Shown here: piece by piece, positions 4,234 through 20,480 of the stretch | How positions within the stretch are numbered: position 1 is the first letter of the stretch | Layout of the letters: the number at the start of each line of letters is the position of its first letter | From: Planctomycetota bacterium | Lineage (GTDB): Bacteria > Pseudomonadota > Gammaproteobacteria > Eutrophobiales > Eutrophobiaceae | Reading direction: 5' to 3' | Length of the DNA stretch: 64,000 nt | Assembly: GCA_047638675.1 (NCBI GenBank) | Contig: JBLIML010000004.1 | Location: 1,360 to 65,359 of the forward strand | Notes under the pieces: generated by a model | Databases searched by the model: none | What the model was told of the DNA's origin: nothing | Seen by the model: the letters and a program-made list of their open reading frames with translations, nothing else | Program-made: the position numbers and the translations under genes

Positions 4234-4719
4234 ATTAACAACAACGATATTCTCCGCCGACTTCGCTATGCATTTGATTTTAGCGATTCGAAAATGATCG
4301 CCGTCTTCGCACAAGCTGAGCTCGAAGTAAGCCGCAGCCAGGTAAGTGACTGGTTGAAAAAGGACGAAGACTCCGAGCAGCAGCCGTGCGATGACAGGAT
4401 TTTGGCCTGCTACCTAAATGGCCTGATTAACGAGATGCGCGGCAAGAAAGAAGGTAGGCAACCGGAACCGGAAGACAAACTCGATAACAACATTATCTTC
4501 AGGAAACTCAAGATAGCCCTTAACCTGCAGGCTGAAGACATATTAAGAATTCTGGCGCTTGTCGATATTACGATAAGCAAGCATGAACTCAGCGCATTTT
4601 TCAGAAAGAAAGGGCACAAGCATTACAGAGAGTGTCAGGAACAAATCCTGAGAAATTTCCTACACGGTATCCAGATAAAATACCGAGACGAAACAGAGAT
4701 CGAAAATAACGCAGACTAG
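4234..4719 (+). CDS. DUF1456 (YehS-like) protein, probably with a non-canonical ATT start
   Basis: The ORF track starts at ATG 4294. The conserved-looking N-terminal motif NNDILRRLRYAFDFSDSK is encoded in-frame upstream. No ATG, GTG or TTG lies between the in-frame stop at 4198-4200 and 4294. Confidence 0.6.
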   Translation: MNNNDILRRLRYAFDFSDSKMIAVFAQAELEVSRSQVSDWLKKDEDSEQQPCDDRILACYLNGLINEMRGKKEGRQPEPEDKLDNNIIFRKLKIALNLQAEDILRILALVDITISKHELSAFFRKKGHKHYRECQEQILRNFLHGIQIKYRDETEIENNAD

Positions 4720-5077
4720 TTCAGCAGCATAACGGCGAACCGCCCCAGCATCACGGGTTCAAACTTATGTGGCCAATATGATTTAATCTCTTAACCGGGG
4801 TTAGGGTAATCCTATCCCAGTTTGACGCGCACATTCTAAAAGGGACTGGACTGAGGCAATTCCAGCGTCGATTGATGTTGTTTTGCGTTCCCGAAAAGAT
4901 CCAAAGACGCAGACCCTATTAATTCTATTAGCAGCAAGAGGGCCAGGAGTTTTTACTCGCCATGTGCGCTTTTTGTGTGTCACAATTGTGCCCTGTTATG
5001 CTCAGTTAGGCATATTTTGCAACGAACGCCCTGTCTAACTATTTGTTAATTAAAATGTTATATTTCCCAAAATAAAT

Positions 5078-5122
5078 CTGAAAATCCCTATGTCGGTGGT
5101 TCAATTCCACCCCCGGCCACCA
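5078..5122 (+). other. 3' half of a tRNA-Phe(GAA) gene without a 5' half (att-like remnant)
   Basis: Reads CTGAAAA / TCCCT / ATGTC / GGTGG-TTCAATT-CCACC / CCCGGCC / A / CCA. These are the anticodon loop, 3' anticodon stem, variable loop, T arm, 3' acceptor strand, discriminator and CCA. No GGCCGGG acceptor 5' strand or D arm lies upstream. Confidence 0.75.
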
Positions 5123-5147
5123 TCTTCTTAAATACTGGTATTTAATT

Positions 5148-6095
5148 ATGGAAAAATCGATCGATCAAGCCGTGCATCGCAGTAATTTGTACGGCACAAA
5201 CCCCGAGCAAACCTATAGTGGTGCTCTCAGTTTCATGCGTCGTTTGTATACGCGTGAACTTAAAGGTGTGGATGTGGCTGTTACTGGCATTCCGTTTGAT
5301 ACGGCCACAACCAATAGGCCGGGAACACGTTTTGGACCGCGTTCAATTCGGGAGGCTTCCACGCAAATTGCCTGGGCGCAGATGGATGGCTGGGATTTTG
5401 ATGCCTTTGATAAACTGGCGGTGATTGACTACGGGGACTGTGATTTTGACCACGGTCGGCCTGAAAAAGTACCAGCACGTATTCAGAAACATACGAAAGC
5501 GATAATTTCCGAAAATGTTGGCTTGCTAACATTGGGTGGTGATCATTTTATAACTTATCCGATTTTGAAAGCACACGCTGAGCTTTACGGCCCTTTATCC
5601 CTCATTCATTTTGATGCACATTCCGATACCTGGGCAGATGAAGAGGGTCGGATTGACCATGGCACCATGTTTTATCATGCCGCGAAAGAAGGGATTGTGA
5701 ATGCGGAAAAATCAGTTCAAATTGGTTTACGTACGCACAATGATGATGCCTGGGGTTTTAATGTATTAAAGGCACCGTGGGTACATGAGCAGGGAATAAA
5801 TGCAGTGGTCGAACGAACAAAGGAAATCGTTGGCGATAACTTATGTTATTTAACATTTGATATAGACTGTCTTGATCCGAGTTACGCTCCGGGCACGGGG
5901 ACACCGGTGATCGGTGGTTTAACGACGCATCAGGCACAACAGATTTTGCGCGGCTTTGCCGGGATAAACCTGGTGGGTATGGATCTGGTGGAAGTAGCGC
6001 CGGCCTATGATGTCGGCGATATCACCTCACTAGCTGGCGCCAGTCTGGCCCTGGAGATGTTGTATGTTTATGCTTCCAATCCAAACCGCAAGTAG
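5148..6095 (+). CDS. speB: Agmatinase (ureohydrolase family)
   Basis: Collinear with E. coli SpeB. Mn-site motifs: GGDHFITYP, HFDAHSDT, LTFDIDCLDPSYAPGTGTPVIGGLT, VEVAPAYD. Confidence 0.85.
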   Translation: MEKSIDQAVHRSNLYGTNPEQTYSGALSFMRRLYTRELKGVDVAVTGIPFDTATTNRPGTRFGPRSIREASTQIAWAQMDGWDFDAFDKLAVIDYGDCDFDHGRPEKVPARIQKHTKAIISENVGLLTLGGDHFITYPILKAHAELYGPLSLIHFDAHSDTWADEEGRIDHGTMFYHAAKEGIVNAEKSVQIGLRTHNDDAWGFNVLKAPWVHEQGINAVVERTKEIVGDNLCYLTFDIDCLDPSYAPGTGTPVIGGLTTHQAQQILRGFAGINLVGMDLVEVAPAYDVGDITSLAGASLALEMLYVYASNPNRK

Positions 6096-6113
6096 TTGCG
6101 TGTTTCGGCGTTG

Positions 6114-7400
6114 TTAGCGTAAATCCATTAAACGAAAATAAATCATACCGAGCGCGACAAGGTTGTTTCCGATCCATTGACTGCCGGGAATGCGGAAATG
6201 TCTGACATCATTGAACAAATCAAATCTTTCGAAGGTGCCGGAAATCGTCTCAGCCAATATTTCCCCGACAAGGTGGGTGACGTTTACGCCGTGACCTGAA
6301 TAACCCTGTGCATAATAGATATTGTCATCCAGTCTGCCGATGTGAGGAATACGGTTAATCACGATGCCGATTTTACCACCCCATTCATAGTCGATTTTTA
6401 CCTCTTTTAGTTGAGGGTATATTTTTATCATTCTCGGCAGCATGGTTTTTTTGATACTTAAGGGATCACGCCCGGAATAATTACAACGTCCACCAAACAA
6501 CATGCGTTTATCTGCGCTTAATCTGAAGTAATCAAGCACGTAATTTGGATCACACACGGCCATATCAAGCGGGTTTATTTCATGAGCCAATTCATCCGAC
6601 AAAGGCTCGGTGGCAATGATGAAGCTTCCCGCGGGAAAGACTACGCCGCTAAGTTTTTGCTGTTCAAGTGCATGATAAGCATTGCCAGCCAGAATAACGA
6701 AATCACTTTCAACATAACCGTTTTCGGTATGCACTCTGGGTCTTTTACCGTGTTCAATTCGGGTGACAGGCGATTGTTCAAATAGGCTCGCGCCCTGCTC
6801 TACAGCGGCCTTCGCTTCACCTATACACAAGTTCAAAGGATGCAGGTGACCATTCGCCATGTTAATCAAACCTGATCGGTATGCTGTTGTCCCCAGTACA
6901 TCCGACATTTCTTCTGTGGGAACCATTCTTACTTCGTGAGGGAAATTATGCTTTTGAAATTCTTCGTATTGTTCGATTAAATCGCGTTCGTGTCGTGCTT
7001 TGATGGCGACGTCCATGTAGCCGAACTTCAGATCGCAATTGATTTTGTATTTTTCGACACGCAGCTTCACTATTTCGTTGCCCGCCCAGCGCATTTGCCA
7101 GAGAAGGTCACTTATATTTTTATCCTGGTATTTTTGCAGGCGCGCCTCACCACTTATACCACCAATCAGCTGTCCGCCATTTCGACCGGAAGCGCCCCAG
7201 GAAACCTGATTGCTTTCCACAACACAGACCTTGTAACCACGTTCGGCCAGGTGCAAGGCTGAAGATATACCGGTAAAACCCGCACCAATGATACAAACAT
7301 CCGCGCTATGTGCGCCTTCGAGTACTGGATAATCAGGAATACTATTTGCAGTTGCTGCGTAATAGGAGCCGGTGTGGGGCTGTGGCGAATTGCTGGACAT
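6114..7400 (-). CDS. FAD-dependent oxidoreductase, gamma-glutamylputrescine oxidase-like (PuuB/PauB family)
   Basis: 428 aa. N-terminal DVCIIGAGFTGISSALHLAERG dinucleotide fold (DAO family). Last gene of the spu-like operon. Confidence 0.8.
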   Translation of the reverse strand: MSSNSPQPHTGSYYAATANSIPDYPVLEGAHSADVCIIGAGFTGISSALHLAERGYKVCVVESNQVSWGASGRNGGQLIGGISGEARLQKYQDKNISDLLWQMRWAGNEIVKLRVEKYKINCDLKFGYMDVAIKARHERDLIEQYEEFQKHNFPHEVRMVPTEEMSDVLGTTAYRSGLINMANGHLHPLNLCIGEAKAAVEQGASLFEQSPVTRIEHGKRPRVHTENGYVESDFVILAGNAYHALEQQKLSGVVFPAGSFIIATEPLSDELAHEINPLDMAVCDPNYVLDYFRLSADKRMLFGGRCNYSGRDPLSIKKTMLPRMIKIYPQLKEVKIDYEWGGKIGIVINRIPHIGRLDDNIYYAQGYSGHGVNVTHLVGEILAETISGTFERFDLFNDVRHFRIPGSQWIGNNLVALGMIYFRLMDLR

Positions 7401-7414
7401 AAGGTGATTACTCG

Positions 7415-8824
7415 TTAAAGACTGGGATGGTTATCTTGCCATTTCAAATGTGTTTGCAGGTTTGCGCCGATTTGTAAAACGGTTAAATCATCATAAGTTC
7501 GGCCAACTATTTGAATGCCGGTGGGCACGCCGTTTTCGGCTTTGCCGGAAGGCACCGATAATACGGGGCATCGACCAAGCATATTAAATGGCCAGGTCAT
7601 GCACTCATCAAGAATCAGTTTAAATGCCTGAGGTTTGCCTTCTGCTGGCCAGCCGCTCGTTGCTATGCTCGGGCAAATCAGGGCTTCAAAATCATCGAGA
7701 ATATCGCCAAGGTCCTTATACATTTCACCTGCCGCGCTGATTGATTGAAGATATTCTTCCGTGCTTGTGGCGAGACCCATTTCCGCCCATTCAATACTGT
7801 AATCATCCATTTTTTCTTTTCCCTGAGAAAAGCGTTTGGCAATATCCCTGCCGGTGCGAAAACCAAGATGCGCTTTTGCAGCATTGCCCACCGTCACTTT
7901 CCAGGGAATATCGACTTCCTCAACTGTTGCGCCCAGATCTCTCAATGCCTGACAGGCTGTGTTCATGTTATTGCGCACAACTGGCGCTACATTAAAAAAC
8001 CCGAGGTCAAAGGAACAGGCGATCCGCATGTCCTTGATCTTATCGAAGCGACTGGGTACTTCGAGTTTTGGTCGGAGACTGGCTATGTCGTGAGGGTGAG
8101 GTCCATTGATCACCTGAAACATCAGCGCGCAATCTTCGACTGTTCGCGCCATGGGTCCGTTATGGTTATAGCTATCGAGGGCGTAATAAGCCTCACCCTC
8201 CGGTACCCGGCCGTAACTTGGTTTTAAACCCACAAGGCCACACAAACTTGCCGGGACTCTGATTGAACCGGCAATATCAGAACCGCTTGCCAGAGTACTT
8301 GTGCCAGCAGCGAGCGATGCACCGGCGCCACCTGAGGACCCGCCGGGACTGTAGTCGAGATTCCATGGATTACGCGTTATGCCATGCAAACGATTACGGG
8401 TAAATACGGCGCTGGAAAATTCCGGGACATTGCTGCGCGCATGTATGACAGCTCCGGCATCAATCAGTCTTGTTACTAAAGGATGGTCACTCTCATCAAT
8501 ATTGTCTTTGAATAACAAAGAACCTTGCGTCGTATTTTCCCCGCGCATGTTTGTTTCATCTTTAAGGGCGACACTTATTCCCGTCAGAGGTCCCAGCTTA
8601 TCCGGCGATTTCAGGTAGGCAAGTTCAGCCTGTTTGGCCAGGGCTCTCGCTATTTCGAAGCGCTCGTAGGAGAAGGCATTTATTTTGGGTTCAACAATTT
8701 CCGCTCTGGCAATTTGTGCATCCAGCAGCTCAAGTGGTGAGAGAGACTTAGTTTTGAACAGCGTTATTGCTTCAGTGGCGCTTAAATAGCAAAGCTCGTC
8801 GTTTTTACTGACAGTCGATTGCAT
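7415..8824 (-). CDS. Amidase-signature family amidase
   Basis: 469 aa. GGSSGGAGASLAAG signature with downstream GSDIAGSIRVPA. Confidence 0.85.
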   Translation of the reverse strand: MQSTVSKNDELCYLSATEAITLFKTKSLSPLELLDAQIARAEIVEPKINAFSYERFEIARALAKQAELAYLKSPDKLGPLTGISVALKDETNMRGENTTQGSLLFKDNIDESDHPLVTRLIDAGAVIHARSNVPEFSSAVFTRNRLHGITRNPWNLDYSPGGSSGGAGASLAAGTSTLASGSDIAGSIRVPASLCGLVGLKPSYGRVPEGEAYYALDSYNHNGPMARTVEDCALMFQVINGPHPHDIASLRPKLEVPSRFDKIKDMRIACSFDLGFFNVAPVVRNNMNTACQALRDLGATVEEVDIPWKVTVGNAAKAHLGFRTGRDIAKRFSQGKEKMDDYSIEWAEMGLATSTEEYLQSISAAGEMYKDLGDILDDFEALICPSIATSGWPAEGKPQAFKLILDECMTWPFNMLGRCPVLSVPSGKAENGVPTGIQIVGRTYDDLTVLQIGANLQTHLKWQDNHPSL

Positions 8825-8841
8825 AAGGTCTTGCTTTCGAC

Positions 8842-10671
8842 TTATTTGGAAAGCGACAGACGCTCGAGAGTAGCCGTTAATGGCACACCGTTCTCATCCC
8901 AACCTCGCAATTTATAATAGTCAGGCAACATTTCATCTAGACGACATACCAGTCCTTTTGCTGACCCGCTAGTTGCCGGTTCATTAAGAATTCTGGGAGG
9001 CAAAGAATCGTCCTTAATGGTGAGATGGGCGATCAGGTTAAATTGCTTCTCCAGATTCCATATGCGTTCGCCGGTTTCCAGCAAACGTTCTAGATCCCAA
9101 TTGCCTTCACATGCCATGTTAATTTGCCCGGCGAAAAGCTCCTCTGACATTCCTGCGTCCCCGGGGAAAAGGCATAAGCCGCTGGAGTCAACAGCGGCGA
9201 TATAATCTTGAGAGTCTTTTACCACCTGCGCTTTGTTATCAGGTTCTGTTGTTTCGAAATCATCTTCGTAGGGACTGGCGCGTAAGTGACAGGCGCCGCG
9301 ATTACTGGTCGCATAGGCCAGACCCATGCCCTGCATACTGCGCCCATCATAGGCCGCGAATTCCTGGCCTTTTACTGACATGGAAAGTTCAGGGTGCCCG
9401 TATTTTTCACACAGTCGGCGAGATCCCTTACCAATATCGATACCAAATCCTTCTGCCCTGGCAGTCGCTTCTGTCATCGCACATAAGGCTTCGGCAGAAC
9501 CAAAATTCAGTTCAATACCACCTGTATCTTTTACAGTTATAGCACCAATGTCATATAATTCCATTGCCGCCGCGATAGAACCGCCGAGTGAAATCGGATC
9601 CATTCCATACTCGTTACACAGAAAACCGCAGTAAGTTGCCGCATCTATATCCGCAACGCCCACCGCCGAGCCAAGTGCAAAGGCAGTTTCGTACTCAAGC
9701 CCACCTGAGGCACCATGGTATTGCGGTTTGTCTTTTACGGAAAAGTGTTCAGGGTCTATGTGACATATACGCCCACATGCAATAGTGCAGCCGAAGCAGG
9801 CACTGTTTGTTATCAGGTTCGTATGCTCGTGCGCATTCGGAGAGTGCATCGCTTCAACATTTATTTTATCTGCGCCCTCAAACTGGACTTCTCGAAAATT
9901 ACGCGTGGGTAGTGTGCCAAAGGTGTTGGTGATATCCATCATTGAAAGCGTTCCTTCGCGAGTTAAGGCGGCTCGATCGTCACTTTTCTGCATAACAGCT
10001 TTGACTTCATTCGTTATTCGCATAAACCCGGCTGGGTCTGAAACAGTGACACCTCGATAACCTCTTACCGCGATCGCTTTCAGGTTTTTTGATCCCATTA
10101 CGGCTCCCACACCCGAACGTCCGGCTGCCCTGTGCATATCGTTGACGATGCAGGCAAAGCGGCAGGTATTCTCACCGGCAGGTCCGATGGAGGCGATGCG
10201 AATCAGTGGGTCCTGGTGAATGGTTTTAATAAGGGGCTCTGTTGCCCACACTGTTTTTCCCCAGAGGTGATCAGCAGCTAATAACTCCACATGATCGTTT
10301 TCGATATAGAGATAAACAGGGTTAAGCGCTTTTCCTTCGATGATGACCAGGTCGTAGCCGGCCATTTTTAATTCTGCGCCAAATTGGCCGCCGGAGTTTG
10401 AGCAGGCGATGGCTCCTGTTAGCGCACCTTTTGTAATAACAGAATAACGGCCGCCCGTTGATGCCATTGTCCCGGTCAGGGGACCCGTAGCGAAGATAAG
10501 TTTGTTCTCTGCTGACAAAGGATCGACGGCGGGATCGATTTCTTCAAATAGATATTTTGTCCCCAGACCCCTTTGGCCCAGATAGGACATTGCCCACTCC
10601 ATATTGAGTGGCTCGGTAACACATTCGAGGGAGGCGAGATTAACTCGCAGTAATTGACGTTGCCAGGCCAT
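8842..10671 (-). CDS. Aldehyde:ferredoxin oxidoreductase (AOR family, tungsten/molybdopterin plus 4Fe-4S)
   Basis: 609 aa. AOR N-domain (LLRVNL..., GQRGLGTKYL, GRSGVGAVMGSKNLKAIAVRG). CxxCxxxC cluster motif (CFGCTIAC) plus the distal Cys in DSSGLCLF. Confidence 0.88.
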   Translation of the reverse strand: MAWQRQLLRVNLASLECVTEPLNMEWAMSYLGQRGLGTKYLFEEIDPAVDPLSAENKLIFATGPLTGTMASTGGRYSVITKGALTGAIACSNSGGQFGAELKMAGYDLVIIEGKALNPVYLYIENDHVELLAADHLWGKTVWATEPLIKTIHQDPLIRIASIGPAGENTCRFACIVNDMHRAAGRSGVGAVMGSKNLKAIAVRGYRGVTVSDPAGFMRITNEVKAVMQKSDDRAALTREGTLSMMDITNTFGTLPTRNFREVQFEGADKINVEAMHSPNAHEHTNLITNSACFGCTIACGRICHIDPEHFSVKDKPQYHGASGGLEYETAFALGSAVGVADIDAATYCGFLCNEYGMDPISLGGSIAAAMELYDIGAITVKDTGGIELNFGSAEALCAMTEATARAEGFGIDIGKGSRRLCEKYGHPELSMSVKGQEFAAYDGRSMQGMGLAYATSNRGACHLRASPYEDDFETTEPDNKAQVVKDSQDYIAAVDSSGLCLFPGDAGMSEELFAGQINMACEGNWDLERLLETGERIWNLEKQFNLIAHLTIKDDSLPPRILNEPATSGSAKGLVCRLDEMLPDYYKLRGWDENGVPLTATLERLSLSK

Positions 10672-10685
10672 ATAGTCGTAGGAGA

Positions 10686-12071
10686 TTAATTACTTTGAGA
10701 AATGCCGAGTTCCTTCGCTGTCAAATCAAGACATTTATGAGCAAGCTCAATCAATTCATCTATATTTTCTTTTGTCATGGTCAGTGGCGGTGAAATGATC
10801 ATGGTCTCTCCAACAGCTCTCATTACCAGGCCATTATCGAAGCAAAAATCACGACACATCTGTCCTACATTATCAGCGGATTCAAAAAATTCGCGACTGG
10901 CCTTATCCTTTACTATCTCAAGAGCACCAATAAAACCAATGCCTCTTGCCTCACCAACCAGGGGATGATCTGCCAATTCCTTCCAGCGTTTTTGTAAGTA
11001 GGGGCCTGTATTTTTTGCTACATTTTCAATGATTTTTTCATCGCGCAAGATATTGACGTTGGCGAGCGCGACAGCGCAGGCTGCGGGATGACCGGAGTAG
11101 GTAAAACCATGGGCGAACTCTTCCCCTTCAGATATGAGCAAATCCGCAACGCGATCGCCGACCATGACGCCGCCAATGGGCAGGTAACCCGATGAGAGAC
11201 CTTTGGCGATGGGAGTAAGATCGGGTTTTATTTGAAAGTAATCCGATCCAAACCAGGTGCCGAGTCGACCAAAGCCGCAGATAACTTCATCTGCTATTAG
11301 TAAAATGTCGTACTCGTTACAGATGCGTTGTATTTCCGGCCAATAGGTATCAGGAGGAATGATGACGCCACCAGCCCCCTGGACAGGCTCGGCTATAAAG
11401 GCCGCGACCTGGTCTGCGCCGAGGCTAAGAATTTTTTCTTCGAGTAAACGTGCGGTTTTAAGTCCGAATTCCTCCGGCGATAAATCACCGCCATCACGAT
11501 ACCAGTAGGGAGGCGCGATATGTGTGATCCCGGGAATGGGCAAGTGCCCCTGTTCATGAACGGCCTTAAATCCACCCAGGCTGGCAGCGGCGATCGTACT
11601 GCCGTGATAAGCATCAAAACGACTGATGATCATTTTTCTATCAGGCTTGCCCGCGAGATCCCAGTAACGTCGCACTAATCTGATTACCGTATCATTTGCT
11701 TCCGATCCGGAATTTGTGAAAAAAACGCGATTCAAATGCGGGGGAGTCACCTCGGTGAGCAGCTTTGATAGTTCAATGGCAGGTGGGTGCGATGACTGAA
11801 AAAAACTATTGTAAAAAGGCAATTCAAGAAGTTGTTTATAGGCCGCATCAGCAAGTTCTTTTCTGCCATAACCAATATTCACGCACCACAAACCAGCCAT
11901 GGCATCGAGCAGCCGTTTACCCTCAGAGTCCCATATGTAAACGCCATCGGCACGCGTGATTACCCGACAGCCTTTTTCCCCCAAAGCTCTGGTGTCTGTA
12001 AAAGGGTGTAAATGATGATCACGGTCAAATGCCTGCCAACTTGCTGTATCTTTTGCCGTCGCGGTATTCAT
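10686..12071 (-). CDS. spuC: Putrescine-pyruvate aminotransferase (class III PLP)
   Basis: Near full-length collinearity with P. aeruginosa SpuC: GLWCVNIGYGR, SGSEANDT, AFIAEPVQGAGGVIIPPDTYWPEI, ADEVICGFGRLG, GFTYSGHP. Confidence 0.9.
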   Translation of the reverse strand: MNTATAKDTASWQAFDRDHHLHPFTDTRALGEKGCRVITRADGVYIWDSEGKRLLDAMAGLWCVNIGYGRKELADAAYKQLLELPFYNSFFQSSHPPAIELSKLLTEVTPPHLNRVFFTNSGSEANDTVIRLVRRYWDLAGKPDRKMIISRFDAYHGSTIAAASLGGFKAVHEQGHLPIPGITHIAPPYWYRDGGDLSPEEFGLKTARLLEEKILSLGADQVAAFIAEPVQGAGGVIIPPDTYWPEIQRICNEYDILLIADEVICGFGRLGTWFGSDYFQIKPDLTPIAKGLSSGYLPIGGVMVGDRVADLLISEGEEFAHGFTYSGHPAACAVALANVNILRDEKIIENVAKNTGPYLQKRWKELADHPLVGEARGIGFIGALEIVKDKASREFFESADNVGQMCRDFCFDNGLVMRAVGETMIISPPLTMTKENIDELIELAHKCLDLTAKELGISQSN

Positions 12072-12076
12072 GAGCC

Positions 12077-13411
12077 TTATACCTTCAATAATAAATGTTC
12101 ACGTTCCCATGAACTAATCACCTGGGAAAATGTTTCATATTCTAACTCCCTTACTGCCGTGTAGAGTTTGACGAACTTGTCACCGAGGATATTTCGAAGT
12201 GGTTTACAATTTAGAAGAAGGTCAATTGACGAGTGCAGATCTCTCGGCAGTGAAATATCATTTTCATAAGCGCTGCCCTCAAGCGGTTTCGTGGGCACCA
12301 GTTTCTCCTGCATCCCCAGATATCCGGACGCCAACGATGCCGCTATTGCAAGGTAGGGGTTAGTATCGGCACCCGCTATCCTGTTTTCGACGCGTGTATT
12401 CTCGGCAGTTGATATTGGAATACGCAGGCCGACGGTTCGATTATCAAATGCCCAATCTACATTAATAGGTGCCGAATTGTGTGGGGCGATGCGCCTGTAA
12501 GAATTAACATTAGGCGCAAATATCGACATGGCTGCCGGGATATAGGTTTGCTGACCGGCAATGTAATTTCTAAAAACGTTATTGGGCTTACCTGACTTAT
12601 TGATAAAAATATTTTTACCTGTTTTCCGACTGACAATACTTTGGTGTAAATGCGTTGAGCTGCCGGGTTCATCTTGATGTGGCTTGGCCATAAAAGTTGC
12701 ATACATGCCATGTTTGAAAGCGGCTTCACGAACAGTTCGCTTAAATATGAACACCTGATCCGCGAGATTCAGGGCATCACCATGTTTAAAGTTAACTTCG
12801 AGCTGAGCAATGCCATCTTCGTGAGAGAGTGTTTCGAGATCAAGTCCCTGTATTTCAGAGAAACCATAAATATCTTCAACAACACCTTCAAATTCATTCA
12901 GCGCATCGAGACTAAGGGTTTGTCTCGATTTTTCCTGTCGCCCGGATCGACCCACAGGTGGTTCGAGTGGCTGGTTTGCGTCTGTATTAACTTTGACCAG
13001 GTAGAATTCAATTTCAGGTGCAATGACGGGTCTCCATCCTTTTCTTTTATATAATTCCAGCACATGTTTTAGCACATAACGGGGAGCAGTTTGGATGGGG
13101 CTTCCATCAAGACTATAACAATTATGGATAATTTGAGCCGTGGGTTCCGAGGCCCAGGGGACTTTGCGAAGTGATTCGAGGACGGGTCTGGCTTCCATAT
13201 CAATGTCAGTAGGGTTTATGTCATCGACGTAATCTGTGTATTCACCACTAATTGTTTGTGTGAACATAGCTTCCGGAATACGGACACCGTTATCTTCCAG
13301 GTAGCGATCCGCGGGCACAATTTTTCCTCGCGCAGTTCCGGCGAAATCGGGAATTATCGCTTCCACTTCTTCAATTCGGTTTTCTTCAAACCACTGTTTG
13401 ATAAGAGTCAT
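12077..13411 (-). CDS. Glutamine synthetase-family gamma-glutamylpolyamine synthetase (SpuB/PauA/PuuA-like)
   Basis: 444 aa GS catalytic-domain protein (NVNSYRRIAP, VENRIAGADTNPYL). Lies immediately upstream of spuC, as in the Pseudomonas spu cluster. Confidence 0.82.
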   Translation of the reverse strand: MTLIKQWFEENRIEEVEAIIPDFAGTARGKIVPADRYLEDNGVRIPEAMFTQTISGEYTDYVDDINPTDIDMEARPVLESLRKVPWASEPTAQIIHNCYSLDGSPIQTAPRYVLKHVLELYKRKGWRPVIAPEIEFYLVKVNTDANQPLEPPVGRSGRQEKSRQTLSLDALNEFEGVVEDIYGFSEIQGLDLETLSHEDGIAQLEVNFKHGDALNLADQVFIFKRTVREAAFKHGMYATFMAKPHQDEPGSSTHLHQSIVSRKTGKNIFINKSGKPNNVFRNYIAGQQTYIPAAMSIFAPNVNSYRRIAPHNSAPINVDWAFDNRTVGLRIPISTAENTRVENRIAGADTNPYLAIAASLASGYLGMQEKLVPTKPLEGSAYENDISLPRDLHSSIDLLLNCKPLRNILGDKFVKLYTAVRELEYETFSQVISSWEREHLLLKV

Positions 13412-13702
13412 TTTCTTTGGCTACTATTGGTGATAAATATTTTTCTTAGTCCACAATTTTGAAAATTCATTGGATTAAGCGTGTATTAAAGCTAGTGATA
13501 ATAGCGACAGCCCAAGGAGCAGGAAGTTGCCTGAAAGCTTTAAAGGTAATGTCGAAAGGTCAAAACTGCTTCACAGTAAAGCATCGTCCAGCCCTTGTGC
13601 TAATAATTTAAGCGCCAGGGTGCTGTGGAGCTGTTAAGCCTTCGGTACTCCAGTATCTTAATTCAAGTGTTGTGTAAAACACAAGCGCTAAGGGACAGAA
13701 TT

Positions 13703-13722
13703 ATGAATGAGGGTTCATTCAT
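13703..13722. promoter_or_regulatory. Palindrome ATGAATGA-N4-TCATTCAT, a putative second site for the TetR regulator encoded at 19733-20374
   Basis: 8-4-8 inverted repeat sharing the 16-nt core and spacing of the perfect palindrome at 20453-20480. Lies in the divergent intergenic region between the GS-like/spuC operon and the hydroxylase gene. Confidence 0.5.
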
Positions 13723-13912
13723 TAATAATTATTAACTAATTGATATAAATATAAAATATATTATTACCTTATGTCTCTATTTCTTTAAAAATCATCAGAA
13801 AATTAAAATTTGAAGTTGTATATGCACAACGAATACGATATTAATCCGCCATTACTGGAGAATTTTAGTATCCTCCCATTTTTCACGACAAGTTCTCATT
13901 GGTGCTTACGTA

Positions 13913-14479
13913 ATGGATATAGCTGAACCGTTAAAGATACTGGGTAAGGTTGACATCGCCGAACTGCAAAGCCGGATCCTCTCTCTGGATGATGAGGCCT
14001 GGCTTGAGCAGGACTATCGACAAAAAGAATATGATGTACACCGTTACACGGAATCGGTGGTTCTCATATTTACCGATGGCTCTGGTTGGCCAGATATAGA
14101 AGTGAGCAAGCAGCCCGGTTGGGACAAGTTGGCCGATGTCGCCGTGCCGGTTATGCACAATATAGTGGAAAACTTTTATCCCGCTGGCGGTACTATCATC
14201 CGCGCAATGGCGGCCAAACTGCTTCCTGATGGAAAAATAAAACCACACCGGGATTCACATCCTTCCTTTCACCATGGCCACAGAATTCATGTTCCAATCA
14301 CAACAAATTCCAGAGTAAGGTTCATGATAGACGGGCGACCCTATAAATTTGAAGTGGGTCAGGCCTATGAAATAAATAATCAAAAAACGCACAGTGTGAT
14401 GAATAAGGGAAAAGAAGGGAGAATTACCTTTATTTTTGACTATGTCCCACCCAACTTAATTGATCGCTCTGGCCAATAA
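13913..14479 (+). CDS. Aspartyl/asparaginyl beta-hydroxylase-family (cupin, 2-OG/Fe) protein
   Basis: 188 aa. KPHRDSHPSFHHGHRIHVPI and EINNQKTHSVMN fit the His/Asp...His facial triad of this family. Confidence 0.65.
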   Translation: MDIAEPLKILGKVDIAELQSRILSLDDEAWLEQDYRQKEYDVHRYTESVVLIFTDGSGWPDIEVSKQPGWDKLADVAVPVMHNIVENFYPAGGTIIRAMAAKLLPDGKIKPHRDSHPSFHHGHRIHVPITTNSRVRFMIDGRPYKFEVGQAYEINNQKTHSVMNKGKEGRITFIFDYVPPNLIDRSGQ

Positions 14480-14528
14480 GTAAATCCACATTTAGCATGA
14501 ATGGTGTATTGATGCAGTTCATTGAAAT

Positions 14529-15371
14529 CTAGGATCCGGCTCTAACAATAAGTTGCTCGTCTGTTTTTCGTTGTTTTTCCTGTCGTATCAATAGCCAACC
14601 TGCAAGCGCGACGCCAATGCTTACGATAGTAATAATGAGAGTGGCCAGGGCGTTTATGTCCGGTGTTACGCCGAGTCGGATCTTGGAATAGATCCACATT
14701 GGTAGCGTACTGGCGCCCGGTCCGGAAACGAAGCTGGCAATAATAAGATCATCGAGAGACAGGGTGAACGCCAGTAGCCAGCCGGATAACATTGCGGGAA
14801 AGATCAAAGGTAAGGTAATGTCCAGCGTTACGCGAAACGGTCTGCCGCCCAGGTCCATCGCGGCTTCTTCCAGTGACTGATCCATCGAGATTAATCGTGA
14901 TTGGACAATGACAGCGACATAAGCCATTGAGAAAGTGATGTGTCCAATCATGATGGTGGTTGCGCCTCGTTCACCGGGCCAACCCGTTAAATCCTGCATA
15001 GTGACAAACAACAAAAGCAAAGATAGCCCTGTGATAACTTCCGGCATCGCCAACGGTGCTGCAATCATCCCGGTAAAAAGCAATCTGCCACGGAAACGGC
15101 CCATTCGAGTCAGCGCAAGGCCCGCCAGTGTCCCCATAAGGGTAGCAAAGGTAGCGCTAATAAGGGCGATACGAAGACTGAGTAAAGTCGCTTCGATTAT
15201 TTGTCTGTTTTCCAATAAAGCCAGGTACCAACGAAATGAAAAGCCGCCCCACACAGATACAATTCTTGAATCATTAAAGGAGTAAACCATTACCAGAATA
15301 ATGGGTACATAAAGGAAGGCATAACCAAAGCAAAGCACAGTGATCAAAAAGCTTGATCGCTTGCTATTCAT
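14529..15371 (-). CDS. Polyamine-type ABC transporter permease (PotI/PotC-like)
   Basis: Multi-TM permease. The likely start, ATG at 15371 (MNSKRSS...), overlaps the upstream stop as ATGA. The longer listed ORF (to 15473) would overlap the upstream gene by about 100 nt. Confidence 0.85.
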   Translation of the reverse strand: MNSKRSSFLITVLCFGYAFLYVPIILVMVYSFNDSRIVSVWGGFSFRWYLALLENRQIIEATLLSLRIALISATFATLMGTLAGLALTRMGRFRGRLLFTGMIAAPLAMPEVITGLSLLLLFVTMQDLTGWPGERGATTIMIGHITFSMAYVAVIVQSRLISMDQSLEEAAMDLGGRPFRVTLDITLPLIFPAMLSGWLLAFTLSLDDLIIASFVSGPGASTLPMWIYSKIRLGVTPDINALATLIITIVSIGVALAGWLLIRQEKQRKTDEQLIVRAGS

Positions 15372-16285
15372 GGTGCGTCCTGTGATTCCGGTGCCTGAAA
15401 GTGTTGAAAAAGCATCATTGGCAAGATCAGGATTAGCAAGAGAATAGTGGCAACGGCTGCTGACAATGGCCAATCACGATTACCGAAAAATTCATCGTAA
15501 AGTGTTCGACCAATCATCAGCGAATCCAGTCCGCCCAGTAAAGATGGAATAACAAATTCCCCCAGGGCGGGAATAAATACCAGCAAACTACCGGCGACGA
15601 TGCCGGGCAGGGAAAGTGGCAGCGTGATATCGCGAAAGATAACCAGCGGTTTCGCACCTAGATCAGCGGCGGCGTCATTCAAATCAAAATCCAGTTTTTC
15701 CAGATTAGCGAAAAGTGGCAGGATCATAAAAGGCAAATAAGAGTAAACAATACCCAGATAGACAGCGAAATCGGTATATAGCAGTTTCAGAGGTTGTTCG
15801 ATAAGTCCCAGTGCGATTAAGGAATTATTGATTAAACCGTGGGTGCTCAACATTCCCATCCAGGCATAGACTCTGAGTAAAAACGATGTCCAGAACGGCA
15901 GGATGATCAGGAACAGAAAAATATTGCGCCATACTGAATCTGCCCGAGCTATAGCGTAAGCCATTGGATATCCAATGAGTAAGCAAAGACAGGTCGATAT
16001 AAAGGCAATTTTTAGTGATTTGAAATAGCTTATCCAGTAAAGATCATCCTCCATCAGGAATCGATAGTTATCCAGAGTGAAATGAAAAGAGATGTTTGCG
16101 TTTTCCGAAAACTCAAGCAATGGTGTAAAAGGCGGGAGCGCCACTACAGGGTCAGAAAAACTGATCTTGAAAATAATGGCGAAAGGCATGAGGAAAAAAA
16201 TCAGAAGCCATAAATAGGGTGCCAAAATAACAAAACGTCGCCACAATATATCCAGCGTTCTTTGTTGAGACAAAGGGGCATTCAT
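15368..16285 (-). CDS. Polyamine-type ABC transporter permease (PotH/PotB-like)
   Basis: 305 aa, six hydrophobic spans, EAA-like loop (DLGAKPLVIFRDITLP). 4-nt overlap with the ATPase gene. Confidence 0.85.
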   Translation of the reverse strand: MNAPLSQQRTLDILWRRFVILAPYLWLLIFFLMPFAIIFKISFSDPVVALPPFTPLLEFSENANISFHFTLDNYRFLMEDDLYWISYFKSLKIAFISTCLCLLIGYPMAYAIARADSVWRNIFLFLIILPFWTSFLLRVYAWMGMLSTHGLINNSLIALGLIEQPLKLLYTDFAVYLGIVYSYLPFMILPLFANLEKLDFDLNDAAADLGAKPLVIFRDITLPLSLPGIVAGSLLVFIPALGEFVIPSLLGGLDSLMIGRTLYDEFFGNRDWPLSAAVATILLLILILPMMLFQHFQAPESQDAP

Positions 16286-17421
16286 TCGGTTAGCACGACG
16301 CTGCTTTGCGCATCCCAGGACAGGTAGACTTCTTCATCCCATTCAAGAACACGTTCAGCTGAGCGCACTCTGTTTTGTGCACTAACCTGAACAATTTTAC
16401 CCGAGGCTGTTTTAACCCTGTAAATTGACAAATTACCGTGATAACCCAGATCCCAGACAACACCTTTTATAACGGACAAACCATTTCCCTGTGGTCGATC
16501 TTTATCTATAGTTATTTTTTCTGGTCTGACGGCAATAGTTAGTTCAGAACCCACTACTGTATCAATAGGATTCACGGCCAGTATTGTTGTCCCCGTTTCC
16601 TTACATTTCATTTCCAGTTCTCTGTCATTGAGTTTACTTACAACACCTTCAAACAAGTTTATGCTGCCAAAAAAATCGGCGACATAGCGATTGACAGGAT
16701 ATTCGTAGATTTGCTTTGGTGTGCCAGTTTGTATCACTTTGCCACTATGCATAACCGCTATACGTGAGGAGAGAATCATGGCTTCATCTTGATCATGGGT
16801 CACAACGATAAAAGTTATGCCGATTTGATCCTGAATATTCATCAATTCAAATTGAGTATGCTCACGCAGTTTTTTATCAAGTGCGGCAAGCGGTTCATCC
16901 AGCAATAAAACTTTTGGTTTTTTAATAAGCGCTCTGGCCAGCGCAACGCGTTGTCGCTGTCCCCCAGATAATTGATGAGGCTTACGTTTTGCAAACTCCG
17001 TCATTTGTACCAGTTCGAGCATTTCCTCTACACGGTTTTGTATTTCCTGTTTTCTTACGCCTTCTTTTTTTAGACCATAGGCAACATTTTTCTCAACCGA
17101 CATATGTGGAAATACTGCATAAGACTGAAACATCATGTTCACCGGGCGCTCGTATGGCGGCACGGTAGTCATGTCAACTCCGTCAATAAGGATCCTGCCA
17201 GCGGCAGGTGTTTCGAATCCGGCAAGCATGCGCAATAATGTGGTCTTACCGCAGCCGGATCCACCGAGAATAGCAAAAAATTCATTCTTATAAATATTGA
17301 GATTTACATTATCCACCGCCAGATAACCATCAAAGTCTTTTGAAATATTTTCAATCTGAATGAAGGGCGCTTCATCCGGAGCCTGCCAGACGGGTTTTAG
17401 TTGAGATGTTGCATCAATCAT
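16282..17421 (-). CDS. Polyamine-type ABC transporter ATPase (PotA/PotG-like)
   Basis: Walker A GGSGCGKTT, signature LSGGQRQRVALARAL, Walker B LLLDEP, C-terminal TOBE-like domain. Confidence 0.9.
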   Translation of the reverse strand: MIDATSQLKPVWQAPDEAPFIQIENISKDFDGYLAVDNVNLNIYKNEFFAILGGSGCGKTTLLRMLAGFETPAAGRILIDGVDMTTVPPYERPVNMMFQSYAVFPHMSVEKNVAYGLKKEGVRKQEIQNRVEEMLELVQMTEFAKRKPHQLSGGQRQRVALARALIKKPKVLLLDEPLAALDKKLREHTQFELMNIQDQIGITFIVVTHDQDEAMILSSRIAVMHSGKVIQTGTPKQIYEYPVNRYVADFFGSINLFEGVVSKLNDRELEMKCKETGTTILAVNPIDTVVGSELTIAVRPEKITIDKDRPQGNGLSVIKGVVWDLGYHGNLSIYRVKTASGKIVQVSAQNRVRSAERVLEWDEEVYLSWDAQSSVVLTE

Positions 17422-17440
17422 TTTGAATGGTTAGCTATCT

Positions 17441-18529
17441 TCAAATTCCGGTTTTCATTCGCGTCCATGCCCTCGAACGTGGACGTTCCTTTTTGGGTGA
17501 GAAAACTACCACAGCTTGCAATCTTTTTCTCACGCTTGCATTGGGGTAAATCCCGGGATCGCTCGTGATCTCAATATCTACAAGCGGAGTAGCGGATTTA
17601 TTGCCGTTAGCATAACCGGTAAAATTGGAGATAGCTGCAATAACTTCCGGGCGTAACAAATAGTTTATAAGAAGGAGTGCATTACCTGGGTGTGGGGCAT
17701 CGGCCGGTATAACCAGTGTGTCGAACCAGTTATGCACACCCCTGGAGAACATGGCAAAACCCAGATTAATATCAATGTCAGCTTCTTTAGCCCGTCTTTT
17801 TGCGACGGAGTAATCACCCGACCAGCTCATGGCTGCACAAACTTCCTTATTCGGCATATCAATCAACATTTTTCCCGAACTGAAATATTTTATATAGGGG
17901 CGAATTGCCTTTACTACCTGCTCGGCCTCTTTCAAGTGTTGTGGTTCGATCGAGTTTGCGTGATGACCAAGATAATTCATTACCGAAGGTATCGTATCAA
18001 TCGAACCGTCCAGTAAACTGACGCCACAATCGCTTATGCGGGACAGAATTTTCGGATCGAAAAAAAAGTCAGCAGTCTCCAATGATACTTCGGGGATACG
18101 TTCCTTTAGCAAGTCAATGTTGAAGGCGACGCCGGTTGTTCCCCACATATAAGGTGCTGCATGTCGATTGTCCGGATCGAAGGCAGATAGCTTATTCAAA
18201 AGCTCGGGATCAAGGTGATGCCAGTTAGAGAGTTTGCTCCGGTCCAGTGTCTGATAAATACCTGCAGTAATTAGTCTTGCGGAAAATGATGCTGAATGGA
18301 GAACAAGATCATAGCCACTTTTACCTGCCAGCAATTTGGCATCTACAATGTCGGTCGTATCGTAAATATCGTAATTGACCTTGATACCGTATTCTTTCTC
18401 AAAATTGCTCAGGGTATCTGGTCCGATATAATCTGCCCAGTTGTAAAAATTAACAATTTTTTCTTCTCCTGCATACAAATTCTGTAGCAGAAAAAAAGTC
18501 GCCAGTAGAATAAATAGATTTCTAATCAT
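17441..18529 (-). CDS. Periplasmic substrate-binding protein, PotF/PotD family
   Basis: 362 aa. Signal peptide MIRNLFILLATFFLLQNLYA. PotF-like N-terminus (NFYNWADYIGPDTL..FEKEYGIKV). Confidence 0.85.
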   Translation of the reverse strand: MIRNLFILLATFFLLQNLYAGEEKIVNFYNWADYIGPDTLSNFEKEYGIKVNYDIYDTTDIVDAKLLAGKSGYDLVLHSASFSARLITAGIYQTLDRSKLSNWHHLDPELLNKLSAFDPDNRHAAPYMWGTTGVAFNIDLLKERIPEVSLETADFFFDPKILSRISDCGVSLLDGSIDTIPSVMNYLGHHANSIEPQHLKEAEQVVKAIRPYIKYFSSGKMLIDMPNKEVCAAMSWSGDYSVAKRRAKEADIDINLGFAMFSRGVHNWFDTLVIPADAPHPGNALLLINYLLRPEVIAAISNFTGYANGNKSATPLVDIEITSDPGIYPNASVRKRLQAVVVFSPKKERPRSRAWTRMKTGI

Positions 18530-18564
18530 TATTAACCTGGCTTTGTAAGCCAGAGATAGTCTGT

Positions 18565-19719
18565 CTACATATCTGCGAGACCGCGTTTTAGCAGGCCTTT
18601 CGCAATAATCATACGCTGTATTTCACTTGTGCCTTCCCAGATACGATCAACACGCAACTCTCTGAAATACCGTTCGGCCAGGTTTTCGCGCATATAGCCG
18701 CGACCACCGAATATTTGTACTGCGCGATCTGCCACTCGATTGGCCATCTCAGATGCATAGAGTTTTGCCATAGAACAACGCGCATGTAATTGTTTCAAGT
18801 CATCACCACGATCATGTGCCTGTGCTGCCTCAAAAGTCATGAGTCGAGCGGCCCAGAGTTCTGTGACGCTGTCTGCCAACATAAATTGAATGGCCTGTTT
18901 GCTTGCCAAAGGCTCACCCTGAATATCACGGTTTTTGGCGAATTCAGCCGCTTCCTCTATCAAACGTGCCGCCGCTCCACAACATCGGGCTGCTATCATC
19001 ATACGTTCGTGACGAAACCAGCTTCTCGAGTACTGCATGCCCTCTCCTTCGGCACCAATGCGCATCGCATCCGCTACGAAGACATCTGTGAAGCGATAAG
19101 TTGGGTGATGAGCGGCGTATGTATGACTGAATAAAGGGTTGGCGATAACTTCTACGCCCGCTGTATTAATATCAAGAAAGAAGAGCGCGTGTTCGCCATT
19201 TTCTAATTTAGCCTGTATAAAAAAATAGTCGGCAAGATTGGCACTGGTTACGTACCATTTTTCACCGTTGATGGTATAACCACCTTTACACTTCGTTGCC
19301 CTTGTATTTATCGTCTCGTTTGAACCTGCCTCCGCTTCAGTGATGGCGTAGCACTCTTTTCGAGAGCTATCTATGAGAGGCAATATATAATTTTCTATCT
19401 GCTGTTTGCTGCAGGCTTCAAACATCCACTGTTGCGCTTCGGAAAAACACCAGCATAAGGCATTGGTTACTTTTCCAAGTTGCTCCCAAACCGCAACTTG
19501 TTCCGTCATACCAAGTTCGAGACCGCCGAACTTTTTCGGCACATCCATTTTGCTAAAACCCAGTTCTATCGCAAGTAAGTTGTGTCGTTTACTTATCTTC
19601 TCTGGCAGCACGCCTCCGTTAAATTCGGCCTCAATTTCCCAGGGCTTTAACTCTTCTTCGGTAAACTTGAAAGCTTTCCCCTGCCATTCTCTGGCGTTAT
19701 CACTTAATACGAGATCCAT
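18565..19719 (-). CDS. Acyl-CoA dehydrogenase family protein
   Basis: ACAD C-terminal motifs (QIFGGRGYMRE, IWEGTSEIQR). The preferred start, ATG at 19719 (MDLVLSD), lies 13 nt after the tetR stop. The listed ORF start at 19791 would overlap tetR. Confidence 0.85.
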   Translation of the reverse strand: MDLVLSDNAREWQGKAFKFTEEELKPWEIEAEFNGGVLPEKISKRHNLLAIELGFSKMDVPKKFGGLELGMTEQVAVWEQLGKVTNALCWCFSEAQQWMFEACSKQQIENYILPLIDSSRKECYAITEAEAGSNETINTRATKCKGGYTINGEKWYVTSANLADYFFIQAKLENGEHALFFLDINTAGVEVIANPLFSHTYAAHHPTYRFTDVFVADAMRIGAEGEGMQYSRSWFRHERMMIAARCCGAAARLIEEAAEFAKNRDIQGEPLASKQAIQFMLADSVTELWAARLMTFEAAQAHDRGDDLKQLHARCSMAKLYASEMANRVADRAVQIFGGRGYMRENLAERYFRELRVDRIWEGTSEIQRMIIAKGLLKRGLADM

Positions 19720-19732
19720 AAGGTCTAATCGC

Positions 19733-20452: not shown

Positions 20453-20480
20453 AAATATGAATGAATAATCATTCATATTT
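20453..20480. promoter_or_regulatory. Perfect 12-4-12 palindrome AAATATGAATGA-ATAA-TCATTCATATTT, the probable TetR operator
   Basis: Read directly from the sequence. It lies 79 nt from the tetR start and 61 nt from the divergent aminotransferase start. Confidence 0.7.

Follow-up and report, generated by a model that had tools for sequence, protein, structure and literature searches.

The 64-kb stretch of contig JBLIML010000004.1 analysed here (the window) carries, at 6114-13411, five consecutive open reading frames (ORFs) on the minus strand, and our leading reading, held with moderate confidence, is that they form a spu/pau-type operon for the catabolism of polyamines (putrescine and agmatine) in an uncultured, oxygen-using marine lineage, in which an aldehyde oxidoreductase (AOR) would oxidise the aminoaldehydes made by the transaminase SpuC and a flavoprotein oxidase. 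The window was analysed by ORF scan, Pfam domain assignment and NCBIfam models with equivalog cut-offs. The five ORFs are separated by gaps of 5, 14, 17 and 14 nt, and their Pfam domains correspond, from 5' to 3', to a glutamine synthetase (GS)-like synthetase, SpuC, the AOR, an amidase-signature enzyme (the amidase) and a DAO-family flavoprotein. An earlier note on this DNA had described a tightly packed minus-strand polyamine operon of five genes, and both the coordinates and the domain identities were recovered in our scan; the assignment to the spu/pau/puu type is supported, and agmatinase and potFGHI genes lie on the flanks (Table 1).

The aldehyde oxidoreductase and its operon

The AOR is full length, with the AFOR_N (PF02730, 262 bits) and AFOR_C (PF01314, 422 bits) domains, and it matches AorB of Aromatoleum aromaticum (PDB 8C0Z, chain A) with 796 bits and 59.7% identity, and the Pyrococcus enzyme PfAOR (1aor) with 509 bits and 46.7% identity. 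It has the 11-residue insertion after CxxCxxxC that is specific to AorB and an Asn at the position of PfAOR Asp338, as in AorB, and in a neighbour-joining tree it branches beside AorB. By its sequence the enzyme is a member of the bacterial AorB subfamily and does not group with the archaeal AOR.

The cofactor sites were checked in a MAFFT alignment with the sequences of both structures and 77 relatives. The [4Fe-4S] ligands C292-x2-C295-x3-C299 and C500 correspond to Cys288/291/295/494 of PfAOR, and the motif D495-S-S-G-L-C500-L-F is present, confirming the CxxCxxxC, distal Cys and DSSGLCLF elements read in the sequence by the earlier note. The pterin and Mg contacts R75, N92, R181, A182, D358 and D495 are kept (PfAOR R76, N93, R182, A183, D343 and D489), as are the second-shell residues T241, E328, Y441 and H462 (PfAOR T243, E313, Y427 and H448), the list of second-shell residues for the family being taken from a 2025 review (PMC12096430). 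The cluster ligands, the contacts and these four second-shell residues are likewise found in 77 of the 77 relatives, and PfAOR Y312 has a conserved counterpart in Y327. The loop that follows the catalytic His (residues 463-480) is 7 residues shorter than in Aromatoleum AorB, a trait common to all 77 relatives, including five with AorA; PfAOR Y452 has no aligned counterpart in this shortened loop, and MAFFT places a gap in AorB at this position too, with a Tyr in AorB two residues past the aligned Arg. All 17 cofactor and second-shell positions checked are conserved or match AorB. The loss of cofactor-binding residues on careful alignment had been named as a way in which the proposed role could fail; every cofactor residue proved intact.

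The nonsynonymous divergence (dN) of the AOR gene against the sister operons described below is 0.13-0.18, similar to that of spuC; synonymous sites are saturated, and dN alone is hence reported. Because the cofactor residues and the reading frame are intact and dN is low against a saturated synonymous divergence (dS), the gene is under purifying selection and seems to be functional. The predicted cofactor set is a bis-pterin, probably binding tungsten or molybdenum, together with one [4Fe-4S] cluster.

The genes around the AOR could be placed with different precision. The aminotransferase is a clear SpuC by its scores, with 785 bits against NF005682 (cut-off 510) and 668-719 bits against the solved putrescine/polyamine:pyruvate transaminases 6gwi, 9j4z, 6hx9 and 5ti8. 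The GS-like protein falls below every NCBIfam equivalog cut-off (GGputSyn 177, cut-off 650) and is 56-63% identical to the product of the GS gene that lies directly 5' of spuC in canonical spuA-spuB-spuC-potFGHI metagenome loci, from which we infer a SpuB/PauA-type gamma-glutamyl-polyamine synthetase. The flavoprotein reaches no NCBIfam equivalog and shares 39-44% identity with the DAO genes found in canonical spu loci; it can be placed at the family level only (DAO), as a PuuB/PauB-like protein. A promoter and terminator scan of 4700-19000 gave counts equal to the shuffled expectation and was uninformative, and Rfam and tRNA scans of the window found nothing.

Bacterial AORs have been described as always having three subunits (PMC6365974). 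The earlier note had remarked that no aorA or aorC gene adjoins the AOR, and this absence extends further than noted: the whole 64 kb contain neither an ORF with a ferredoxin-type CxxCxxCxxxCP motif nor an AorC-like gene, and the AOR has no Pyr_redox_2 gene beside it, although copies may be encoded outside the window. We retrieved 80 genome loci whose AOR is 62-79% identical to that of the window. A polyferredoxin gene lies directly 5' of the AOR in five of the 80, all five alphaproteobacterial, and aorA, aorC and aorD/E do not adjoin it in the other 75. Two of the five were looked at more closely: in the one subjected to Pfam (L066), Fer4 upstream and Pyr_redox_2 and ThiS downstream of the AOR make up the canonical aorABCD arrangement, and the other (L068) has the same downstream ORFs. 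The remaining relatives are orphans, mostly monocistronic, in contexts such as rsmI, mraZ/rsmH and prkA-yeaH-spoVR. The three-subunit rule does not fit this clade, most of whose members retrieved here are orphan, and the literature on AorB-type enzymes would be corrected to that extent. The orphan AorB-like genes of other Gammaproteobacteria often have small companions: a divergent ABM-domain gene (about 103 aa) lies immediately 5' of the AOR in 18 loci of the L008-L063 group (for example, L013 at 7570-7929), and a ThiS/MoaD-like gene ending in GG lies immediately 3' in 8 loci (for example, L033 at 9818-10099). These downstream ThiS/MoaD-like genes resemble the aorD/aorE maturation genes. In addition, the more distant orphan AORs are repeatedly found near amine genes, with an aminotransferase and a hydrolase 5' of the AOR in four loci (L023, L025, L038 and L051) and potFGHI beside it in a fifth (L077).

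An AOR in an aerobe had seemed unusual to the earlier note, which took the family to be oxygen-sensitive and typical of anaerobes. The use of oxygen by the host fits the oxygen-dependent enzymes encoded in the window, namely a Rieske oxygenase, a fatty-acid desaturase, a hydroxylase-like protein and the DAO flavoprotein. The surprise itself is weakened, because the AorB branch occurs in aerobic and denitrifying mesophiles and its enzyme was unaffected by air in extracts (PMC6365974); moreover, aor genes have been noted in the aerobic marine Cycloclasticus, where they were invoked for alkane-derived aldehydes (PMC12510462), and the review mentions a single-subunit AOR in Brevibacillus massiliensis, proposed to act on gut aldehydes (PMC12096430). 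AorB-type enzymes accept a broad range of aldehydes (PMC6365974), and so do the known AORs in general (PMC6365974, PMC12096430). Our literature search found no report linking an AOR with putrescine, spermidine, aminobutyraldehyde, polyamine or aminoaldehyde metabolism, and it brought up nothing of use on tungsten enzymes of aerobic haloarchaea.

Operon conservation and a candidate operator

A further check suggested by the earlier note, the conservation of the neighbourhood, was also carried out. The exact window proteins occur in the same gene order on two other metagenome contigs, and the GS, spuC and AOR genes are contiguous in nine lineages, here given by locus: the window (with L081), L067, L168 (with L083), L169, L170, the P0014 locus, L001, L003 and L064. 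What follows the AOR varies. Both the amidase and the DAO gene are present in the window/L081 and in L067, only the amidase in L168 (and in L083, together with an insertion sequence (IS) element), only the DAO gene in L170, the P0014 locus, L001, L003 and L064, and neither in L169. The synthetase, the transaminase and the AOR are the invariant partners, while the amidase (3/9 lineages) and the flavoprotein (7/9) are optional, because they are present in these lineages only. The polyamine-linked AORs form one clade in the neighbour-joining tree.

Some of the related loci deserve a separate comment. The contigs of L083 and L168 are near-identical, and in L083 the IS element (HTH_Tnp_1 and rve domains, 9569-10722) follows the amidase and truncates the agmatinase; the DAO gene is in neither. 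In L004, a 122-aa N-terminal DAO fragment (9947-10315) lies 3' of the AOR and broken ORFs lie 5' of it, the picture of either a polyamine operon in decay or a long-read metagenome-assembled genome (MAG) with frameshift errors.

Upstream of the operon, at 13704-13721, we found a perfect 18-bp palindrome, TGAATGA-N4-TCATTCA. In an alignment of six lineages it is the core of the main invariant block in the otherwise diverged DNA 5' of the GS gene, and after it comes a conserved stretch that looks like -35 and -10 elements. The perfect palindrome occurs twice in the 64 kb, and by our own estimate about 2e-4 copies of a pattern with 14 specified bases would be expected there by chance. The second copy (20458-20475) lies 84 nt upstream of the start of tetR and 66 nt upstream of a divergent aminotransferase gene. 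Across 2.18 Mb of retrieved loci, perfect copies are confined to those bearing the operon, once in each (L067 at 5156, L083 at 3159, L168 at 5985, L169 at 6076 and L170 at 6035), and the palindrome stands 5' of the GS gene or of a TonB receptor gene that precedes it; L001 (2515), L003 (2694) and L064 (2592) have it with one mismatch. Every operon is preceded by a perfect or nearly perfect copy. None was found in 168 other loci; L002 and L004-L007, which are without GS and spuC 5' of the AOR, have none.

The palindrome is likely the operator of a conserved TetR/BetI-type regulator. Because the promoter region of tetR/potFGHI repeats the site found at the operon, the tetR-acd-potFGHI unit, which encodes the putrescine transporter, and the AOR operon probably belong to one regulon, with TetR as the probable regulator. 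PuuR, whose likely gene lies elsewhere in the window, was considered as the binding factor and rejected: between puuR-puuD and aptA there is no copy of the palindrome, which makes TetR the better candidate.

The agmatinase gene occupies the same position in L003, L064, L067, L168 and L170, and the hydroxylase-like gene is kept in place, with 74-81% identity, in L001, L067, L083 and L168-L170. For the transporter, the best-scoring models are NF007889 for PotI (348 bits) and NF007962 for PotF (356 bits), both under their equivalog cut-offs. Further away, the puuR-puuD pair is divergent from the pair encoding AptA and the malonate-semialdehyde dehydrogenase, an arrangement that looks like a beta-alanine/gamma-glutamyl branch of polyamine catabolism; 43916-46807 is the beta-alanine branch expected from spermidine breakdown. 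An Orn/DAP-type decarboxylase is also encoded in the window, which is, in sum, a polyamine island.

Table 1. Polyamine-related and flanking genes of the window
Feature	Coordinates	Strand	Evidence and remarks
Agmatinase (SpeB-type)	5148-6095	+	Convergent with operon; NF002564 452 bits (cut-off 302), TIGR01230 236 (cut-off 174)
PuuB/PauB-like FAD-dependent amine oxidase/dehydrogenase	6114-7400	-	Operon; 428 aa; DAO PF01266 230 bits
Amidase-signature enzyme, variable accessory gene	7415-8824	-	Operon; 469 aa; Amidase PF01425 306 bits
AorB-type aldehyde oxidoreductase (AOR)	8842-10671	-	Operon; 609 aa; AFOR_N and AFOR_C
SpuC-type polyamine/putrescine:pyruvate aminotransferase	10686-12071	-	Operon; 461 aa; Aminotran_3
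GS-like, putative gamma-glutamyl-polyamine synthetase (SpuB/PauA/PuuA-like)	12077-13411	-	Operon gene 1; 444 aa; Gln-synt_C 328 bits
Asp/Asn beta-hydroxylase-like protein (cupin, 2-oxoglutarate oxygenase-type)	13913-14479	+	Divergent from operon; PF05118 47.6 bits
potI-potH-potG-potF, putrescine ATP-binding cassette (ABC) transporter	14529-18529	-	ABC_tran/TOBE_2 and BPD_transp_1 domains
Acyl-CoA dehydrogenase (acd), between tetR and potF	18565-19791	-	Acyl-CoA_dh domains; same position in L168-L170
TetR/BetI-type regulator, candidate palindrome binder	19733-20374	-	TetR_N and TetR_C_6; syntenic in L169, L170 and the P0014 locus
Second GS-like gene	29327-30718	+	Part of the polyamine island
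CoA-acylating methylmalonate/malonate-semialdehyde dehydrogenase (MMSDH)	43916-45445	-	TIGR01722 691 bits (cut-off 448)
AptA-type omega-transaminase (beta-alanine)	45455-46807	-	NF052567 686 bits (cut-off 500)
PuuR-like HTH-cupin regulator	46996-47544	+	HTH_3 and Cupin_2; NF007408 135 bits (cut-off 211)
PuuD-family gamma-glutamyl-GABA hydrolase (class I GATase/Peptidase C26)	47594-48364	+	PF07722 219 bits
Agmatine deiminase-like protein	61882-62928	-	PF04371 357 bits; TIGR03380 348 bits (cut-off 382)

Just past the second palindrome, a co-directional plus-strand cluster (20541-31462) may provide a further route of amine breakdown within the same regulon. Its products are a GntE/GSA-aminomutase-like aminotransferase, two CrtI/amine-oxidase-like flavoproteins, a GcvT-like aminomethyltransferase, an ADP-forming acyl-CoA synthetase, an enoyl-CoA hydratase, the second GS-like protein and an Abhydrolase_11 protein. 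Other genes are unrelated to the operon: two paralogous TPR-sulfotransferase proteins (36099-38114 and 49951-51930, minus strand), a Ser/Thr kinase with TPR repeats (58377-60854, minus strand) and a DUF62-type SAM hydroxide adenosyltransferase (35166-36068, plus strand).

As for the source of the DNA, a protein identical to the amidase (P0121) is present in NCBI under a MAG named "Planctomycetota bacterium". Because every syntenic relative comes from a Gammaproteobacteria MAG, this label is probably wrong and a case of mis-binning. Other bins with related AORs bear equally unlikely names (Polaribacter, Klebsiella pneumoniae and Acidimicrobiia).

Aldehyde oxidation, amide hydrolysis and competing explanations

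In the pathway that we propose, PotFGHI would import putrescine and the agmatinase would supply more of it from agmatine. The SpuB/PauA-like synthetase would gamma-glutamylate putrescine, and the free or gamma-glutamylated amine would be converted into the aminoaldehyde by transamination (SpuC) and by oxidation (the PuuB-like flavoprotein). Acting as a single subunit, the AOR would then oxidise 4-aminobutanal, gamma-glutamyl-4-aminobutanal or both, and possibly 3-aminopropanal, to the acid, its [4Fe-4S] cluster passing the electrons to a soluble ferredoxin or flavodoxin encoded elsewhere. The main enzyme to cleave the gamma-glutamyl derivative of gamma-aminobutyrate (GABA) would be the PuuD-family hydrolase at 47.6 kb, with the amidase as an optional extra hydrolase, perhaps a second one for gamma-glutamyl amides, and GABA and beta-alanine would be processed by other transaminase/dehydrogenase pairs. 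Through the palindrome that they share, the operon and tetR-acd-potFGHI would be regulated together, probably by TetR. A route through guanidinobutyrate (agmatine to 4-guanidinobutanal to 4-guanidinobutyrate) was also considered; the arginase-family gene passes the cut-offs for a SpeB-type agmatinase, and this route is a minor possibility only.

No aminoaldehyde dehydrogenase of the PuuC/PauC/KauB type was found in the operon or in the rest of the 64-kb window, whose sole PF00171 aldehyde dehydrogenase (ALDH) is the MMSDH (PuuC model, 228 versus 850; ABALDH model, 224 versus 909). This absence, with the other steps of the pathway present, supports the AOR as the supplier of aminoaldehyde oxidation. 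According to the earlier note, the AOR replaces the usual ALDH. It is indeed the only aldehyde-oxidising candidate in the operon, and a functional replacement is plausible on the gene content; the positional swap does not stand. A metagenome scan with SpuC yielded 80 canonical spuC loci (SpuC 63-71% identical), none of which has an AOR. No close relative has an ALDH at the position of the AOR, and the canonical operons carry neither enzyme next to spuC. Because canonical spuC operons hold no ALDH, the AOR is an addition to the operon and not a swap.

Several points weigh against the proposed role of the AOR. The lack of an ALDH in the 80 canonical operons makes its absence from 64 kb suggestive and not proof, and an NAD-dependent aminoaldehyde dehydrogenase may be encoded elsewhere in the genome. 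The AORs of L005-L007 are nested in the polyamine clade, stand alone, and have neither polyamine genes nor the operator, so the enzyme is not restricted to the polyamine pathway. In the neighbour-joining tree these three are placed next to L004, the locus with the decayed DAO gene, which suggests that the polyamine genes were lost secondarily and the AOR retained. No electron-acceptor gene for the AOR was identified in the window, nor were genes for the uptake of tungsten or molybdenum or for the cofactor found in the 64 kb. Tungsten is scarce in oxic seawater. Finally, the flavoprotein of the operon may produce H2O2, an awkward product beside an iron-sulphur/pterin enzyme.

The competing explanation to which we give most weight, while still judging it unlikely, is that the AOR is a general aldehyde-detoxifying enzyme that fell into a polyamine operon in one lineage and is transcribed with it, aminoaldehydes being no major substrates of the enzyme and an ordinary NAD-dependent ALDH encoded elsewhere carrying the flux. 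Most of the 80 AOR relatives are monocistronic in unrelated contexts, in L005-L007 the AOR outlasted the polyamine genes, canonical spu operons rely on an ALDH gene outside the operon, and the known AORs are broad-spectrum enzymes. However, the GS-SpuC-AOR order and the short spacing between spuC and the AOR gene are kept in nine lineages with saturated synonymous sites, while the genes downstream vary; the operator tracks the operon; and a region otherwise holding the whole pathway has no PuuC/KauB-type ALDH. These points count against this explanation.

The amidase carries GGSSGG at 161-166, and its catalytic triad, K88/S163/S187, lies in the motifs ALKD and GSIRVPA, the residues having been assigned from these motifs and not from an alignment with a solved structure. 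Among solved structures only generic relatives came up, namely NylA, GatA and aryl acylamidase (3a2p, 2df4 and 4yj6), at about 160 bits, with NylA the nearest (165 bits), and because the similarity is only of this order no substrate can be transferred; the GatA model gives 216 bits. The gene is directly 3' of the AOR wherever it is present, and with a dN of 0.21-0.30 it is the fastest-evolving of the five. Among homologs at 61% identity or less, five of six contexts are unrelated to amines: those at 56-61% stand alone or have ectoine-synthase-like, creatinase-like and xanthine-dehydrogenase-like genes around them, and two at 51-53% follow mazG. A single cluster, from Rugamonas apoptosis, is amine-related and encodes, in this order, an amidase, a permease, an amine oxidase, an ALDH, a second amidase, a TetR regulator and a GS-like protein, without PuuD; in this Puu-like set an ALDH takes the place that the AOR has in the window.

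Such a cluster bears on the idea, contained in the earlier note, that the AOR replaces PuuC/PauC and the amidase replaces PuuD, which would make the five genes a complete alternative Puu pathway. The triad is intact, GatA, a family-level relative, hydrolyses a gamma-glutamyl amide, the Rugamonas cluster manages with two amidases and no PuuD, and spuA (PuuD-like), which stands 5' of spuB in canonical operons, is absent at that position here. On the other hand, a PuuR/PuuD-family pair is present in the window, the PuuD-family protein matching NF008471 (PRK11366) over its full length with 212.5 bits (cut-off 266); 6 of the 9 sister operons have no amidase gene; and the rapid divergence of that gene and its mostly unrelated distant contexts point the same way. 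To our knowledge, no gamma-glutamyl-amine hydrolase has been characterised in the amidase-signature family. The replacement of PuuD by the amidase was thus not borne out; a role of the amidase as a gamma-glutamyl-amide hydrolase is possible by analogy, not likely, and the complete five-gene alternative is improbable.

We give very little credence to a two-step module in which the AOR would convert delta1-pyrroline (or its carbinolamine) to 2-pyrrolidinone and the amidase would open this lactam to GABA. 4-Aminobutanal cyclises spontaneously, the mammalian Mo-pterin aldehyde oxidase makes 2-pyrrolidinone from it, and gamma-lactam hydrolysis is usually ATP-driven. The first two facts, the constant position of the amidase directly after the AOR and the rank of the cyclic-amide hydrolase NylA as its nearest solved relative (at only 165 bits) speak for the module; the energy demand of the last step, the many operons that hold the AOR without the amidase (most of them), and an AOR-family chemistry limited to aldehydes, acids and acylsulfonates (PMC12096430) speak against it. 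Just as far-fetched is an AOR that survives in its aerobic host only as a non-functional relic, or one that works in reverse as a carboxylate reductase and feeds SpuC for amine synthesis: classical AORs are oxygen-labile and the Aromatoleum enzyme reduces acids with very low-potential donors (PMC6365974, PMC9295118), but the conserved catalytic residues, the intact frame and the low dN against saturated dS contradict a relic, the uptake, agmatinase and hydrolase context is catabolic, and acid reduction needs donors far below the physiological redox carriers of aerobes.

A broader picture can be offered tentatively: a widespread clade of single-subunit AorB-type enzymes may exist in oxygen-respiring marine Gammaproteobacteria and in one lineage have become a dedicated aminoaldehyde step under a polyamine operator, with the amidase as an alternative gamma-glutamyl-amide hydrolase in some strains. 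Roles of AORs outside fermenting anaerobes have mostly been guessed ("aldehyde detoxification"); the genomic context described here names likely substrates, the aminoaldehydes from putrescine, and a likely regulon, and natural variants that have or lack the amidase and the flavoprotein oxidase make the role of the AOR testable. If our proposal is true, the AOR family would gain its first member with a defined place in a catabolic pathway of an aerobe; the electrons that this enzyme sends to the ferredoxin pool would be of very low potential, and its metal could be molybdenum instead of tungsten. An air-tolerant single-subunit AOR that acts on aminoaldehydes, or on amino acids in the reverse direction, would be of interest for biocatalysis. 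Polyamines are a significant source of dissolved organic nitrogen in the sea, and a tungsten- or molybdenum-dependent step in their breakdown would tie nitrogen cycling to trace-metal supply.

Comparison with known systems

The spuABCDEFGH/pau polyamine pathway of Pseudomonas aeruginosa was reportedly described by Lu et al. in 2002 and Yao et al. in 2011. The window shares with it a GS-like synthetase gene directly 5' of spuC, a PotF-type ABC transporter, a PauB-like flavoprotein, a candidate PuuD-type hydrolase in the genome region and the beta-alanine branch. In contrast to that system, the window has no spuA 5' of the GS gene, the AOR, sometimes followed by the amidase, stands between spuC and the gene for the flavoprotein, the transporter is a separate upstream unit, and a TetR-type operator is predicted to exert control. 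The Puu pathway of Escherichia coli, with PuuA, PuuB, PuuC, PuuD, PuuR and PuuP, is said to have been established by Kurihara et al. The order of reactions, from gamma-glutamylation through the aldehyde and the acid to hydrolysis, is the same in the route proposed for the window, which has PuuR-like and PuuD-family genes; the window differs in having no PuuC-type NAD-dependent ALDH and a pterin/iron-sulphur AOR where this activity is needed, in the addition of the SpuC transaminase, and in that all Puu-specific NCBIfam models score below cut-off for the window proteins. With NylA, GatA and aryl acylamidase, the amidase has in common the fold family, the GGSSGG motif and the Lys/cis-Ser/Ser triad, at a similarity of only about 160 bits.

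The catalytic subunit of A. aromaticum AorABC (8C0Z; PMC6365974, PMC10413684) is the 59.7% identical homolog of the window AOR and shares its 11-residue insertion, the Asn for PfAOR Asp338 and all cofactor ligands. It differs in the loop, which is 7 residues shorter in the window AOR, and in its genes for the four-cluster polyferredoxin (aorA), the FAD/NAD subunit (aorC) and aorD/E, which do not adjoin the window AOR. The AOR of B. massiliensis and the aor of Cycloclasticus are stand-alone catalytic subunits of oxygen-respiring hosts, proposed to oxidise pathway-derived or toxic aldehydes; likened here by description and not by sequence, they differ in that neither is part of an amine-catabolic operon. 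The type of pathway and the enzyme family are thus both known, and what is new is their combination, the orphan status of most AorB relatives retrieved and the predicted common regulation.

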